This document shows positions 24,827 through 31,048 of a stretch of 43,663 nt of DNA, one piece after another; within the stretch, counting starts at the first letter, position 1, and each line of letters begins with the position of its first letter. The position numbers and the translations under genes are program-made. The stretch lies in the sequence record OZ035792.1. One strand, written 5' to 3'. The notes beneath the pieces were generated by a model. That model ran no database searches, was not told where the DNA came from, and saw only the letters and a list, made by a program, of their open reading frames with translations. This DNA is from Vectrevirus T205P5.

Positions 24827-25826
24827 GCTTCGCAGCTTGTACAAAGACTCCGAGGTACTTGATGCAATCGAGCAAGCTACCGACGAGAAAGGTAATGTTA
24901 ATTACAATGAGATGGCACGTGTATTATCGTGTCACCCTGTGGGTAAGAAGATTACCCGCCAGTTGGCTCGATACTGGCATGGTCAATTCAAGAAGACCAA
25001 GAAGAATGGTGATTATTACCAGACCCTTCTGCAAGAAGATAAGCGTATCAAAGAAGAGCGTAAGCTCAGGACTCCTGACCGCTACGAGGATTTGGCTATT
25101 GTTCCATTGCCTGACTCGCCTCATCGAAGTGTACTGGTGATACCTGATACTCATGCACCTTATGAGCACCCAGATACCCTAGAGTTCCTTGCAGCCGTGG
25201 CAGCACGTTACCGTCCAGACACAGTGGTACACCTAGGAGATGAGGCAGACAAACATGCCTTGTCATTCCACGATTCGGACCCAAATCTGGATAGTGCTGG
25301 CATGGAGTTAGAGAAGGCTCGTATCTTCATGCACAAATTGCACAAGATGTTCCCTGTGATGCGCCTGTGTCACTCCAACCACGGCTCTATGCACTTCCGT
25401 AAGGCAAGCGCCAAGGGCATCCCTGTGCAATACCTGCGCACCTACCGTGAAGTTTTCTTCCCGCAGGGAGGTGGCGACCAGTGGGATTGGCAGCATACGC
25501 ACGTCCTTGAGTTGCCGAATGGTGAACAAGTGGCATTCAAGCATCAACCTGCTGGCTCTGTCCTAGCAGATGCAGCGCATGAGCGTATGAACCTGGTGTG
25601 TGGTCACTTGCACGGTAAGATGTCTGTGGAGTACGCACGTAATACACATGAACAGTATTGGGCTGTGCAGGGTGGCTGCTTAATTGATGAGTCATCCCGT
25701 GCATTTGCCTATGGGCGTGAGTCTAAATACAAGCCAGCATTAGGTTGTGTGGTTATTCTGGAAGGTGTGCCTCATATTGTCCCGATGCAAACCAATAGCG
25801 ACAACCGTTGGATTGGCAAGATTTAG
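24819..25826 (+). CDS. Calcineurin-like metallophosphoesterase (Ser/Thr phosphatase family)
   Basis: Motifs PDTHAP, HLGDEADKH, SNHG, GHLHG; probable TTG start 6 nt after AGGAGG, overlapping the endonuclease VII stop. The start is uncertain; internal ATGs exist. Confidence 0.75.
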   Translation: MGKLRSLYKDSEVLDAIEQATDEKGNVNYNEMARVLSCHPVGKKITRQLARYWHGQFKKTKKNGDYYQTLLQEDKRIKEERKLRTPDRYEDLAIVPLPDSPHRSVLVIPDTHAPYEHPDTLEFLAAVAARYRPDTVVHLGDEADKHALSFHDSDPNLDSAGMELEKARIFMHKLHKMFPVMRLCHSNHGSMHFRKASAKGIPVQYLRTYREVFFPQGGGDQWDWQHTHVLELPNGEQVAFKHQPAGSVLADAAHERMNLVCGHLHGKMSVEYARNTHEQYWAVQGGCLIDESSRAFAYGRESKYKPALGCVVILEGVPHIVPMQTNSDNRWIGKI

Positions 25827-25846
25827 TTGACACTATAGAACAAAGG
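25821..25846 (+). promoter_or_regulatory. SP6-type phage RNAP promoter (ATTTAGTTGACACTATAGAAC)
   Basis: ATTTAGTTGACACTATAGAACAAAGG, close to the canonical SP6 promoter ATTTAGGTGACACTATAGAAG. Confidence 0.75.
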
Positions 25847-26605: not shown

Positions 26606-27549
26606 ACATCTTCCAATTCCTAGGTCTTCCAGAAGACCACCGCAATCATCCATTCATGCTGGTGAAGCATCGCGGTGAAGTTCCTGAGAAGAAACTTACT
26701 TTTCCATGTTATGCACAGGTGAAACGAGATGGAATATTCAGTGCTGTTGTGGTGCGCAATGATGGTGCTGTTGCCGTCTTTGGTCGTACTGGTAAGAAGC
26801 TCGCAAATGTTGAAGCCTTGGAAAAGACATTTAGTGTATTTCCTGTCGGGTTGTATCTTGGTGAGTTGCAATCTATGGCTGTTGATGTTTATCTTGAAGC
26901 TCTGTCAGGAGTGGTAAACCCTAATCGTACAGAGCCACTTGACTTCATAGGCCAGCAGATTAAAGACAACCTGTATATCGACTTCTTCGATATGTTAACT
27001 ATTAAGGCATTCCATGATGGATTCACTGATGTTTCTTATCTCAAACGTTACGATGCTTTACATCGTCGTATCGGCACTCATCTTAGCGGGTGCAACGCTA
27101 TCCTTCCTATCACTCCTTGCCATAATGAGCGAGAAGTTGAAGCGTTTGCGCAAGAGCAAATAGATGCAGGACGTGAGGGTGCTGTATTCAAACTGGACTG
27201 CGATTATGAAGCAGGACACAAAGGTTATCGTCAGACTAAAGAAGTCCGTAAGGTAACTTATGACCTTACTTGTATTGGCTTTGAAGAAGGTAAAGGTAAA
27301 TACAAAGGTAAGGTAGCTAACCTCATTTTCAAGTGGAAAGGGGGCAAGACAATCAAAGCTATGCTCGGTAAAGGGTGGACTCATGCAGATGCAGAACAGA
27401 TGTTCCACGACATTAAACATGGTGGACGATTGAATGTCATTGGTAAAATCTTTGAAGTCAAAGGTCTTCAGGATTCAAGCAAGGGCAACATTCGTCTGCC
27501 CAAAGCGGGAGAATTAAGACATGACAAAGATGAACCAGATTTCTTTTGA
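26602..27549 (+). CDS. ATP-dependent DNA ligase (T7 gp1.3-like)
   Basis: Motif I KRDG in CYAQVKRDGIFSAVVV, motif IV-like EGAVFKL, C-terminal OB-domain motif LPKAGELRHDK. Confidence 0.8.
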   Translation: MNIFQFLGLPEDHRNHPFMLVKHRGEVPEKKLTFPCYAQVKRDGIFSAVVVRNDGAVAVFGRTGKKLANVEALEKTFSVFPVGLYLGELQSMAVDVYLEALSGVVNPNRTEPLDFIGQQIKDNLYIDFFDMLTIKAFHDGFTDVSYLKRYDALHRRIGTHLSGCNAILPITPCHNEREVEAFAQEQIDAGREGAVFKLDCDYEAGHKGYRQTKEVRKVTYDLTCIGFEEGKGKYKGKVANLIFKWKGGKTIKAMLGKGWTHADAEQMFHDIKHGGRLNVIGKIFEVKGLQDSSKGNIRLPKAGELRHDKDEPDFF

Positions 27550-27736
27550 TAGCATGAAGGCAACTCGTGCAGTTGAGGTAGCAGAAGCTATCTTTGAAAC
27601 TTTATCCTGTGGCATGGAAGTGCCATATACTTTACTTGCTGATGCAGAAGAACTTGGTCTTTCTGTAGAAGCTATCCAAGAGAAGGTTGACGAATTATAT
27701 GGTACAGACGAAGAAGAAACCGACGATTTCATTTGA
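27521..27736 (+). CDS. Small acidic hypothetical protein (71 aa)
   Basis: GGGAGAA RBS; overlaps the ligase 3' end; acidic C-terminus EEETDDFI. Confidence 0.4.
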   Translation: MTKMNQISFDSMKATRAVEVAEAIFETLSCGMEVPYTLLADAEELGLSVEAIQEKVDELYGTDEEETDDFI

Positions 27737-27746
27737 AGGAATGGAG

Positions 27747-27869
27747 ATGCTTGAGATGATTCTCAAGCCTTCTTCTCCGAAGGTGACTAAGACTCATGAA
27801 GAGTTAATCGTTGATGAAGTGAAGCGTTACATCATGGATTGTGTCAGAGCACAACTGGTGGTCCAATGA
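27747..27869 (+). CDS. Small hypothetical protein (40 aa)
   Basis: AGGA RBS; its stop overlaps the GNAT start (ATGA). Confidence 0.3.
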   Translation: MLEMILKPSSPKVTKTHEELIVDEVKRYIMDCVRAQLVVQ

Positions 27870-28327
27870 TACGTCCAGCTTCCTTCCTAGATATTCCTGA
27901 GATTATAAACCTTGGGAATAAATATGTGGAAGAGGAAGTCAAGGTAGTGGCCCATCACTCAGCCTCATGGAATGCAGAACAAAGCGCACATAACCTTTGC
28001 GCATCTCTTAGTAGGGAAGATTTATTCCTATGGGTTGCTGTAGATGAAGGGCGGATTGTAGGGTTCCTGTGGGCTGGCTATCACGAGTTGGCCCCTTGGA
28101 CACCTGTAAGGGTTGCCTCTGACATTCTCTTTTATATTATACCAGAGAAGCGAGGAACACTACTTGGTATGCGTCTCATCAAAGCCCTAAAGCAATGGGC
28201 TAGTGATAATGAATGCTCTGAGGTTCGCCTGTCTATCGCCTCTGGTATTAATGAAGAACGTGTCGGACGTATGTATAAGCGACTTGGCTTTGAACCGTTT
28301 GGCACTGTGTATAACCTGAAGTTCTAA
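27866..28327 (+). CDS. GNAT-family N-acetyltransferase
   Basis: IVGFLWA...ILFYIIPEKRGTLLGMRLIKAL...VRLSI...RMYKRLGFEP contains the acetyl-CoA-binding motif of the GNAT fold; about 153 aa. Confidence 0.75.
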   Translation: MIRPASFLDIPEIINLGNKYVEEEVKVVAHHSASWNAEQSAHNLCASLSREDLFLWVAVDEGRIVGFLWAGYHELAPWTPVRVASDILFYIIPEKRGTLLGMRLIKALKQWASDNECSEVRLSIASGINEERVGRMYKRLGFEPFGTVYNLKF

Positions 28328-28336
28328 GGAGACAAC

Positions 28337-28546
28337 ATGGGTGTTGTAAAGAAAGCATTTAAGGCTATCGGTCTTGCTCAAGATGCACCACGTATTGAAG
28401 CCAAAGTCCCAGCACAGCAGCTTGAGCGTAAGCCTGAGACTGAAGCTGAAGATATTCAAATTGGTGCAGGTGGTGATGATGCGACTGCATCTGCAAAAGG
28501 TAAGCGCGGCCTTGTCCGTCCGGTAGCTTCTAGCTTGAAGGTGTAA
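28337..28546 (+). CDS. Small virion-associated protein candidate (gp6.7/gp7.3-like)
   Basis: AAGGAGA RBS; immediately precedes the portal gene; charged and Gly/Ala-rich like T7 gp6.7 and gp7.3. Confidence 0.4.
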   Translation: MGVVKKAFKAIGLAQDAPRIEAKVPAQQLERKPETEAEDIQIGAGGDDATASAKGKRGLVRPVASSLKV

Positions 28547-28547
28547 T

Positions 28548-30098
28548 ATGAAACAGAGCACAGATTTGGAGTATGGAGGTAAGCGGTCTAAGATACCTAA
28601 GCTATGGGAGAAGTTCTCCACTAAACGTAGCTCTTTCCTTGATAGGGCGAAGCATTACTCCAAATTAACCTTGCCCTATCTGATGAATGACAAAGGTGAT
28701 AACGAGACTTCGCAGAATGGATGGCAAGGTGTAGGTGCTCAGGCAACTAATCATCTAGCCAACAAGCTAGCGCAAGTACTATTCCCTGCACAGCGTTCCT
28801 TCTTCCGTGTAGACTTAACTGCACAAGGTGAGAAGGTTCTTAATCAGCGTGGCCTGAAGAAGACAGAGCTAGCTACCATCTTCGCTCAAGTGGAAACACG
28901 GGCAATGAAAGAGTTAGAGCAACGTCAATTCCGGCCTGCTGTAGTGGAAGCATTCAAGCATCTTATTGTTGCTGGTAGCTGTATGCTATACAAGCCGAGC
29001 AAAGGTGCAATCAGTGCTATCCCAATGCATCACTACGTAGTTAACCGTGATACCAATGGCGACCTGTTAGACATTATCTTGCTACAAGAGAAAGCCTTAC
29101 GTACCTTTGACCCAGCTACACGTGCTGTAGTAGAGGTTGGCCTGAAAGGTAAGAAGTGCAAGGAAGATGACAGCGTTAAGCTGTACACACATGCTAAGTA
29201 TCTTGGTGATGGATTTTGGGAACTCAAGCAATCTGCTGATGATATTCCTGTAGGTAAGGTTAGTAAGATCAAATCAGAAAAGCTACCTTTCATCCCATTA
29301 ACTTGGAAGAGAAGCTATGGTGAGGATTGGGGTCGCCCTCTTGCAGAGGATTACTCCGGTGACTTATTCGTTATCCAATTCTTATCTGAAGCAGTTGCCC
29401 GTGGTGCTGCACTGATGGCAGATATTAAGTACCTGATTCGTCCGGGTGCTCAAACTGATGTTGACCACTTTGTTAACTCTGGCACTGGTGAAGTTGTCAC
29501 TGGTGTAGAAGAAGATATCCATATTGTACAGTTAGGTAAGTATGCAGACCTCACACCTATTAGCGCGGTTCTAGAGGTATACACTCGCCGTATCGGTGTT
29601 GTCTTCATGATGGAGACAATGACACGCCGTGACGCCGAACGTGTTACTGCTGTAGAAATCCAGCGAGATGCGTTAGAGATTGAGCAGAACATGGGTGGGG
29701 TATACTCCCTCTTTGCTACTACTATGCAATCGCCAGTAGCGATGTGGGGTCTGCTGGAGGCAGGGGAGTCCTTCACTAGTGACTTAGTGGACCCTGTGAT
29801 TATCACAGGTATTGAAGCTTTAGGACGCATGGCTGAGTTGGATAAACTGGCTAACTTTGCTCAGTATATGTCACTGCCATTACAATGGCCTGAGCCTGTC
29901 CTAGCTGCTGTGAAATGGCCTGACTATATGGATTGGGTGCGTGGTCAAATCTCTGCTGAACTGCCGTTCCTTAAATCAGCTGAAGAGATGGCACAAGAAC
30001 AGGAAGCACAGATGCAAGCACAGCAAGCACAGATGCTTGAAGAAGGTGTGGCTAAGGCCGTGCCGGGTGTAATTCAACAAGAACTTAAGGAGGCGTAA
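28548..30098 (+). CDS. Portal (head-to-tail connector) protein, T7 gp8-like
   Basis: 516 aa; matches T7 gp8 as recalled (GVGA..NHLANKL..LFP, VEAFKHLIVAGS, YTHAKYL, RVTAVEIQR, GGVYS). Confidence 0.9.
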   Translation: MKQSTDLEYGGKRSKIPKLWEKFSTKRSSFLDRAKHYSKLTLPYLMNDKGDNETSQNGWQGVGAQATNHLANKLAQVLFPAQRSFFRVDLTAQGEKVLNQRGLKKTELATIFAQVETRAMKELEQRQFRPAVVEAFKHLIVAGSCMLYKPSKGAISAIPMHHYVVNRDTNGDLLDIILLQEKALRTFDPATRAVVEVGLKGKKCKEDDSVKLYTHAKYLGDGFWELKQSADDIPVGKVSKIKSEKLPFIPLTWKRSYGEDWGRPLAEDYSGDLFVIQFLSEAVARGAALMADIKYLIRPGAQTDVDHFVNSGTGEVVTGVEEDIHIVQLGKYADLTPISAVLEVYTRRIGVVFMMETMTRRDAERVTAVEIQRDALEIEQNMGGVYSLFATTMQSPVAMWGLLEAGESFTSDLVDPVIITGIEALGRMAELDKLANFAQYMSLPLQWPEPVLAAVKWPDYMDWVRGQISAELPFLKSAEEMAQEQEAQMQAQQAQMLEEGVAKAVPGVIQQELKEA

Positions 30099-31023: not shown

Positions 31024-31048
31024 TATTTACTGGACACTATAGAAGGGA
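31024..31048 (+). promoter_or_regulatory. SP6-type phage RNAP promoter (consensus) upstream of the major capsid gene
   Basis: TATTTACTGGACACTATAGAAGGGAG. Confidence 0.85.

Follow-up and report, generated by a model that had tools for sequence, protein, structure and literature searches.

The acetyltransferase gene and its coupled upstream reading frame

Here we describe a gene for a GNAT-fold N-acetyltransferase in the podophage Vectrevirus T205P5, using the whole 43,663-nucleotide (nt) stretch of DNA analysed (sequence record OZ035792.1; hereafter the window). The gene runs from an ATG at 27866 to a TAA at 28325–28327 (27866..28327) and encodes 153 amino acids (aa); this and all other features reported below lie on the + strand unless stated otherwise. 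Homologues of the window GNAT all begin MIR.A and mostly have 153 aa, and we therefore rejected a 162-aa open reading frame (ORF) with a TTG start at 27839 as an artefact of mechanical ORF calling. DNA comparison places the window in Vectrevirus, in the K1-5/K1E group of SP6-like podophages (Autographiviridae, Molineuxvirinae): positions 27500–28600 are 99.9% identical to Vectrevirus LI10P5 and 97–98% identical to K1-5 and K1E. The orthologues K1-5 gene 27, K1E gene 27 and SP6 gene 28 have the same neighbours and ATGA overlap as the window gene, with protein identities to the window GNAT of 96–100% within Vectrevirus and 76% to SP6.

The window GNAT gene is conserved in a phage genus that is already known, has been annotated before and is not a new element. 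Deposited proteins, for example those from vB-Eco-KMB14 and ULINTec7, are 100% identical to it and carry the labels 'GNAT family N-acetyltransferase' or 'putative acetyltransferase', and the K1-5, K1E and SP6 orthologues are labelled 'acetyltransferase' in RefSeq/GenBank, as are many further entries. The literature searched yielded no functional study of SP6 gp28 or K1-5 gp27 (or the K1E orthologue). What the present analysis adds is that this gene belongs with T7 gene 7 and Rac in one slot family.

The original prediction described a 40-aa ORF coupled to the GNAT gene by an ATGA start–stop overlap. The coupling holds: the TGA of the upstream ORF (27867–27869) overlaps the GNAT ATG (27866–27868), and ATGA or GTGA is found at the GNAT start in about 35 of 39 related IMG/VR loci. 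The length needs correction, as the upstream ORF most likely encodes 56 aa (27699..27869; K1-5 gene 26 / SP6 gene 27; phrog_6507), and the 40-aa ORF (27747..27869) is probably the C-terminal part of that product. We prefer the longer form because the ATG at 27699 is the only start kept across K1-5, SP6 and Era103; the internal ATGs at 27741 and 27747 read TGG or ATC in SP6 and Era103. A Pfam scan of the 56-aa ORF and its counterparts gave no significant domain match, neither gp6.7 nor RHH.

Predicted fold and acetyl-CoA site

The following evidence agrees with the original prediction that the protein is a clear GNAT-fold acetyltransferase. In Pfam, it matches PF00583 Acetyltransf_1 (E 1.2e-9; 38.9 bits, where the cut-off is 20.7), PF13508 Acetyltransf_7 (E 7e-9, 36.3 bits against 27) and PF13673 Acetyltransf_10 (25.6 bits against 23.6). 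Among PHROGs, it matches phrog_1249, 'acetyltransferase', at E 1.1e-53 over its full length (residues 1–151). An AlphaFold2 (AF2) model built on 81 family sequences reached a predicted local distance difference test (pLDDT) score of 95.5, with the topology β1-α1-α2-β2-β3-β4-α3-β5-α4-β6-β7, which is the full GNAT order including helix α4 and the β6-β7 hairpin. A Foldseek search of the PDB with this model returned 805 chains at E ≤ 1e-3, of which the best 50 were all GNAT enzymes (best E 5.6e-9, template modelling (TM) score up to 0.79).

Conservation across the 81 family members falls on Y90-V/I91-x-P93-E94-x-R96-G97, S/T126-G127, Y137 and L140-G141, with R96 kept in 99%, P93 in 93% and G97 in 84%, and position 137 being Y in 75% and F in 16%. 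The motif A loop of the window protein reads Y90-I-I-P-E-K-R96-G97-T-L-L-G101; its single deviation from the canonical Q/R-x-x-G-x-G/A pattern is a Leu at loop position 4, where the family does not conserve a Gly. The motif A loop contacts acetyl-CoA through backbone amides, so we do not read the Leu at this position as loss of the acetyl-CoA site. By alignment the acetyl-CoA motif region appears largely intact. The motif loss that the original prediction had named as telling against an acetyltransferase was not evident, because the modelled fold is full, the β4/motif A region is conserved and the Leu is not taken as site loss.

Global similarity does not settle the substrate. The best cellular matches by sequence and TM-score are BAR, PA4866, ArsN1, SSAT, SpeG and DpA, which are compact single-domain GNATs of ~150–175 aa. 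The nearest PDB and NCBIfam sequence families are the phosphinothricin/methionine sulfoximine (MSX)/arsinothricin acetyltransferases, the diamine (SSAT) acetyltransferases and RimI, all far below cut-offs: ArsN1a scored 27.5 bits against 170, ArsN1b 23.9 against 210, PRK03624 27.9 against 124 and RimI TIGR01575 22.6 against 86.4. Identity of the window GNAT to PAT/ArsN and polyamine acetyltransferases is 18–24%, and their curated cut-offs are missed widely. By structure, the best Foldseek E-values in the PDB lead to the protein N-terminal acetyltransferase Naa60, and the top TM-scores to BAR/PAT (0.78–0.79; root-mean-square deviation 2.8–3.1) and the polyamine acetyltransferase DpA (0.75).

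Two enzyme classes put forward for comparison in the original prediction are not supported. Aminoglycoside acetyltransferase models of the AAC(6') type in NCBIfam gave 13–24 bits (best 24.2) against cut-offs of 140–320. For tRNA-acetylating toxins, AtaT and TacT are not in the best 50 PDB fold matches, no toxin GNAT model is among the NCBIfam matches of the window GNAT, the upstream ORF has no significant Pfam match, and the sole match in a PADLOC scan was sub-threshold (E 0.015) and to no toxin family.

The K1-5 reference GNAT carries an in-frame 22-aa insertion that duplicates HHSASWNAEQSA in tandem in the α1-α2 loop, which the window GNAT lacks. Among the DNA-search matches listed, only K1-5 records show a split alignment at this loop, and the duplication may be strain-specific or a sequencing artefact.

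A conserved slot ahead of the portal gene

The GNAT gene stands at the head of a block of virion genes, as originally proposed, but it does not directly adjoin the portal gene, from which it is separated by a gene of 69 aa (28337..28546). The product of this gene matches phrog_1320 (E 1.9e-11), the T7 gp7.3 family that T7 gp7.3 itself also matches, and phrog_9033 (1e-12); BLASTP of the 69-aa ORF against LUZ19 gp29 returned nothing. The same order, a small ORF overlapping the GNAT start, a GNAT-like gene (133–157 aa), a small gp7.3-type gene, portal and scaffold, recurs in Molineuxvirinae (K1-5, SP6, Era103), Colwellvirinae (phi-A318, uligo), Gajwadongvirus (ECBP5), Krylovirinae and relatives (LUZ19, phiB1_1, MR8, Axy23), Waewaevirus (LIMEzero) and the Studiervirinae genus Ghunavirus (KNP, Henninger). 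In LUZ19, the occupant of the slot is gp28, which is Rac. Loci retrieved from IMG/VR with a family motif from a narrowed alignment, all of them Autographiviridae, gave the same picture in 39 of 39 cases, with an ORF of 58–77 aa after the GNAT gene and the portal gene beginning 185–245 nt past the GNAT stop.

The counterpart in T7 is the run of genes 6.7, 7, 7.3, (7.7 HNH) and 8, in which gp7 holds the GNAT position. The original prediction had set the gene outside the T7 core layout; instead, it occupies the T7 gene 7 slot (6.7 – 7 – 7.3 – 8), whose product models as a GNAT and is linked to the window family through Rac, as described below. The downstream gene in the window is gp7.3-like, and the upstream 56-aa ORF is not detectably gp6.7-like.

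Homologues also occur in podophages outside Autographiviridae. In YeP5 and Piluca, the gene is flanked on one side by that of a large tail protein (phrog_376 or phrog_8094) and on the other by that of an internal virion protein (phrog_418), and the SIO1 homologue is placed similarly, within the structural module and not among early genes.

Despite this setting, the slot-7 protein itself appears, by analogy with two related phages, to be non-structural, because no slot-7 acetyltransferase is found among their virion proteins. The Rac-like 'gp7' of phiPsa17 (gh-1-like) went undetected in a virion proteome in which gp6.7 and gp7.3 were detected (PMC4517105), and the 14 structural proteins catalogued in an atlas of Ar-KM, a phiKMV-like phage, include the gp7.3 orthologue but no acetyltransferase (bioRxiv 10.64898/2026.05.18.726046).

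Relation to Rac and T7 gp7

Rac, the GNAT of phiKMV-like phages, is toxic to the host when expressed alone, raises host lysine acetylation and leads to the alpha subunit of RNA polymerase being cleaved at its linker, and its function requires its acetyl-CoA pocket residues (PMC7552054). Like the window protein, Rac is a phage GNAT of ~155 aa in the same slot with overlapping neighbours. It differs in sequence (~15% identity), in PHROG (phrog_3986), in carrying a D-x-H-V-G signature and in apparently lacking helix α4; its gene in phiKMV follows the RNA polymerase gene, whereas the window GNAT follows the ligase.

Profile comparison gives the two families a distant but specific connection. Aligned with hhalign, the window family and the Rac family gave a probability of 95.8% (E 7e-9, 130 columns). 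When nine diverse Rac-family proteins were compared with all PHROGs, all nine matched their own phrog_3986 and eight matched phrog_5167; eight also matched phrog_1249, the window family (best E 2e-6), and seven matched phrog_2746, the T7 gp7 family (best E 3e-8). The remaining acetyltransferase PHROGs were weakly matched by at most two of the nine. In the reverse direction, 7 of 11 gp7-family proteins matched the Rac PHROG and 10 of 11 matched phrog_5167. Direct hhalign scores for the T7 gp7 family were weak (P 0.008 against Rac, P 0.015 against the window family) because its alignment is shallow (11 close sequences). The window GNAT itself had no match to phrog_2746, and its sequence link to T7 gp7 is an indirect one that runs by way of the Rac family.

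T7 gp7 matches nothing in Pfam; its modelled fold is GNAT-like. The AF2 model of a 98%-identical protein (pLDDT 90.6) shows β1-α1-α2-β2-β3-β4-α3-β5-β6, a GNAT core without α4, and nearly all of the 50 PDB chains that it matches best by fold carry annotations as acetyltransferases of the GNAT superfamily (best E 8e-6, TM up to 0.70). In a viral structure library, the nearest structures after 'host specificity protein A' entries are the Lidtsur GNAT, K1F gp6.8 and Axy23 (Rac family); further near structures come from phiNV3, PPpW-4, PP90, KP-Rio and LIMElight, all Autographiviridae podophages. The likeness to the window GNAT thus comprises the slot, between 6.7 and 7.3 and ahead of gene 8, and the modelled fold, while gp7 is shorter (133 aa), lacks α4 and a Pfam match, and has a degenerate acetyl-CoA loop (PEADSKG). 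The literature searched contained no paper tying T7 gp7 ('host specificity protein A') to GNATs or acetyltransferases.

A D-x-H-x-G motif in the β3-β4 region is invariant in both the Rac and gp7 families. The window family, with α4 kept and D-x-H-x-G absent, is the most canonical member of the slot group. On profile and model comparison, T7 gp7, the Rac-type proteins and the SP6-type GNAT appear to form one loosely related syntenic group. The comparison thereby joins three families: phrog_1249; phiKMV Rac, which shuts off host transcription; and T7 gp7, which is known for 'host range' and has no Pfam family.

Expression and selection

No phage promoter lies immediately 5' of the GNAT gene, the closest being at 25821–25843 and 31025–31047. 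The upstream one, ATTTAGTTGACACTATAGAACAA (25821..25843), is a variant of the window consensus ATTTACTGGACACTATAGAAGAG; the next consensus promoter, ATTTACTGGACACTATAGAAGGG (31025..31047), lies 5' of the major capsid gene and marks the downstream end of a promoter-less stretch. The K1-5/K1E-type promoter core CACTATAG occurs in 13 copies in the window against 1.9 expected. Within the promoter-less stretch lie a nucleotide-kinase-like gene, DNA ligase, two small ORFs, GNAT, the 69-aa gene, portal and scaffold, and genes around GNAT are packed with overlaps or gaps of 1–10 nt. Because this stretch is shared with the kinase-like gene and ligase as well as with portal and scaffold, GNAT appears to sit at the middle-to-late boundary, and the transcript made by the phage RNA polymerase from the 25821–25843 promoter probably carries it.

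The GNAT gene is under purifying selection, with a ratio of nonsynonymous to synonymous substitution (dN/dS) of about 0.1: 0.11 against K1-5 and 0.135 against SP6 (for which dS is 1.36). This constraint is similar to that on the adjacent ligase and looser than that on the portal gene. At least 80% of 27500–28600 is covered in 132 of 141 SP6-like records, and no deletion variant of the GNAT block is evident among the 141, because the partial matches listed are the most divergent records (64–72% DNA identity). Loss of the gene was not evident in any SP6-like genome searched and, as judged from these comparisons, it is real, intact and under selection. Beyond this group, phmmer against 1.84 billion representatives found 180 clusters (50% identity) at E ≤ 1e-10, nearly all of ~150 aa.

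Predicted role in the infected cell

Our leading reading, held tentatively and at somewhat less than an even chance, is that the window GNAT is a non-virion, acetyl-CoA-dependent protein acetyltransferase that is made at the middle/late switch and acts mainly on host proteins, as Rac does. Predicted to be catalytically competent and non-structural, it would fill the 'gene 7 slot' of T7-like podophages and use host acetyl-CoA to acetylate protein amino groups as infection passes from its middle to its late phase. As with Rac, the only characterised relative, its main targets would be host proteins, and their modification would aid take-over of the cell. The phenotype expected is a conditional, host-dependent ('host range') requirement and not an absolute one. 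Cleavage of RNA polymerase alpha by the window GNAT should not be assumed, since this phenotype is genus-specific even among Rac homologues.

Several observations weigh against a Rac-like action on host proteins. Members of the phrog_1249 family are known here from sequence. BLASTP of the window GNAT against LUZ19 Rac gave no alignment, and the protein had no match to the Rac PHROG (phrog_3986) at E ≤ 0.01. It lacks the D-x-H-x-G signature, with PW[ST] in its place, and keeps α4, which is missing from the T7 gp7 model and, by alignment, apparently from Rac; the window GNAT could be a different GNAT captured into the same slot and not a true orthologue. Position 4 of its Q/R-x-x-G-x-G/A loop is Leu, not Gly (R96-G-T-L-L-G101), and its best global TM-score matches are small-molecule enzymes (PAT/BAR). 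Host take-over genes are usually early. The window GNAT is embedded in a virion-gene block, and its homologues in the unrelated phages YeP5, Piluca and SIO1 lie amid genes for tail and internal virion proteins; both placements favour a virion-related role. Alpha cleavage, finally, is genus-specific and was not seen with the syntenic LKA1 homologue (PMC7552054).

A role on the virion is the first alternative to be weighed, and we consider it possible although unlikely. The GNAT would here acetylate or acylate the N-terminus or lysines of adjacent ejected proteins, among them the gp7.3-like 'wedge', and perhaps of further internal proteins, and so tune assembly, DNA-end binding or membrane insertion, hence the infectivity of progeny on particular hosts. 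The tight packing and translational coupling of the GNAT gene with small virion-protein genes across Autographiviridae are in its favour, as is the position of the YeP5, Piluca and SIO1 homologues directly before a phrog_418 'internal virion protein' gene in the tail/ejection module. T7 genes 7 and 7.3 share the annotation 'host range and adsorption', and the N-terminal acetyltransferases Naa60, Naa10 and Naa50 are among the best fold matches. Yet gene order in the family is conserved overall, and adjacency may merely reflect ancestry.

The putative target proteins are equivocal. An MG start followed by a polybasic run is found in the gp7.3-like proteins of SP6-like, T7, gh-1-like, MR8 and LIMEzero phages, and the second residue is always small (G, S, A or T), which is consistent with N-terminal modification without being diagnostic of it; a small second residue is common in proteins generally, which weakens the point. 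The modelled β6-β7 hairpin of the window GNAT is very short, in contrast to the closed peptide tunnel of NAT (N-terminal acetyltransferase) enzymes. No acetylated phage virion protein was found in the literature searched, and the N-terminal 83 residues of T7 gp7.3 are invisible in cryo-electron microscopy and so uninformative on acetylation (PMC11784390). In addition, Rac is toxic and active without other phage proteins, and therefore has host targets (PMC7552054).

A broader version of this idea, which we regard as improbable, is that the slot-7 GNATs (the window protein, the Rac-type proteins and T7 gp7) are dedicated modifiers of the adjacent small ejected proteins. Acetylation or acylation would in that case fall on the polybasic gp7.3-type 'wedge', at its exposed N-terminal Gly, Ser or Ala or at its lysines, and perhaps on gp6.7-type proteins at their N-terminal Cys. 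If this were true, the modification would control DNA-end binding or envelope insertion of the ejected proteins, and the 'host range' label that T7 gene 7 has borne for fifty years would be explained as a phenotype of virion modification.

More doubtful than modification of the adjacent ejected proteins by the window GNAT is a small-molecule acetyltransferase acting on polyamines (spermidine/putrescine pools for DNA condensation and packaging) or on an amino-acid analogue (PAT/MddA/ArsN-like detoxification). The closest PDB and NCBIfam sequences to the window GNAT are indeed the phosphinothricin, methionine-sulfoximine and arsinothricin acetyltransferases and the diamine (SSAT) acetyltransferases, its highest TM-scores are to BAR/PAT and DpA, and the gene is expressed alongside head genes. 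The NCBIfam scores given above nevertheless fall far short of their cut-offs (27.5 against 170 for ArsN1, 27.9 against 124 for PRK03624), and the structural matches are non-discriminating, as NATs do equally well by E-value. Rac, the sole characterised relative, works through proteins, and no obvious reason presents itself why phages whose hosts differ so widely should all keep a small-molecule enzyme in this slot.

We think it very unlikely that the protein has a non-catalytic role, in which the GNAT fold would bind or chaperone the small, highly charged proteins of the virion and acetyl transfer would play no part. T7 gp7 would be a precedent, having the fold without α4 and with its pyrophosphate loop degenerate (PEADSKG), and the window family does not conserve the position-4 Gly. 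Rac, however, depends on its acetyl-CoA pocket residues (PMC7552054), and the window family retains the complete fold with α4, R96-G97, the β4 YVxPE and the canonical Tyr137.

The window GNAT, at 153 aa, is shorter than the tRNA-acetylating GNAT toxins, which are typically ~175 aa long. We give next to no credence to a toxin–antitoxin-like pair in which the GNAT would acetylate aminoacyl-tRNA (TacT/AtaT/ItaT type) and the coupled small ORF would be the antitoxin: the ATGA-coupled small upstream ORF resembles a GNAT-RHH operon layout and Rac is toxic when expressed alone (PMC7552054), but AtaT and TacT are absent from the best fold matches, no NCBIfam or PADLOC toxin family was hit, the upstream ORF has no significant Pfam match, RHH-type or other, and the coupled upstream gene in gh-1-like phages and T7 encodes the virion core protein gp6.7.

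Two further roles were considered. For an anti-defence role, also raised in the original prediction, AcrVA5 offers a precedent as an anti-CRISPR GNAT of phage or prophage origin that acetylates Cas12a (cited in PMC7552054); unlike AcrVA5, the window GNAT is fixed in the late-gene block of a lytic phage and not in an accessory anti-defence island. A role in O-acetylation of the K1 capsule was dropped, as the gene is common to phages of Salmonella, Klebsiella, Proteus, Erwinia, Vibrio and Pseudomonas.

Phages of the SP6/K1-5 type have therapeutic uses against K1 E. coli, Klebsiella and Salmonella. Should the enzyme act on host proteins, as we tentatively favour, phage take-over by acetylation would have a second example; should it act on ejection proteins, this would represent a new kind of step in virion maturation.

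Neighbouring genes and minor features

The 69-aa protein downstream of GNAT resembles gp7.3, a small protein of the virion and of ejection ('wedge' or nozzle-assembly factor). Its N-terminus is basic and begins MG, its centre is rich in A/Q/P, an acidic stretch is present, and its C-terminus is again basic (GKRGLVRP); basic ends, an A/Q/P-rich centre and an acidic stretch are described features of gp7.3 orthologues (bioRxiv 10.64898/2026.05.18.726046). gp7.3 is a small virion protein of the tail channel; particles require it in order to adsorb and be infective, and it leaves the virion by ejection during infection (PMC11784390). Against SP6, the 69-aa gene has a dN/dS of 0.06. An N-terminal MG with a polybasic run and a C-terminal GKRxLVRP...SL motif recur in gp7.3-type proteins across subfamilies, and gp6.7-type or internal virion proteins begin MC in T7, KNP, YeP5 and Piluca. 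The portal gene (28548..30098; head-tail connector, annotated head-tail adaptor in K1-5) starts 2 nt past the stop of the gp7.3-like gene.

The map of the window is that of K1-5 in circularly permuted form: GNAT, which lies at 19.6 kb in K1-5, is found here at 27.9 kb. Because the window is permuted in this way and opens near the large terminase gene, its first letter is an assembly convention and not a genome end. The promoter at 25821–25843 departs from the window consensus (ATTTAGTTGACACTATAGAACAA against ATTTACTGGACACTATAGAAGAG) and may be weaker or differently timed. We set aside an antisense ORF of 144 aa (28187..28621), together with matches to sigma-70-like promoters and to terminators nearby, as being at chance level or without other supporting evidence.

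Upstream of the 56-aa ORF lies a 71-aa ORF (27521..27736; K1-5 gene 25 equivalent, phrog_5860), whose 3' end overlaps the 56-aa ORF (start 27699) by 38 nt in a different frame. A stable RNA hairpin within the 56-aa ORF (27730..27785; minimum free energy –23.1 kcal/mol, z = –4.25) is also detected by a terminator scan. In the window and in K1-5, it buries an internal Shine–Dalgarno-like GAAGGA together with three internal ATGs. The hairpin is lineage-specific, being kept in K1-5 and not in SP6, and may serve for RNase III cleavage or for the control of translation.

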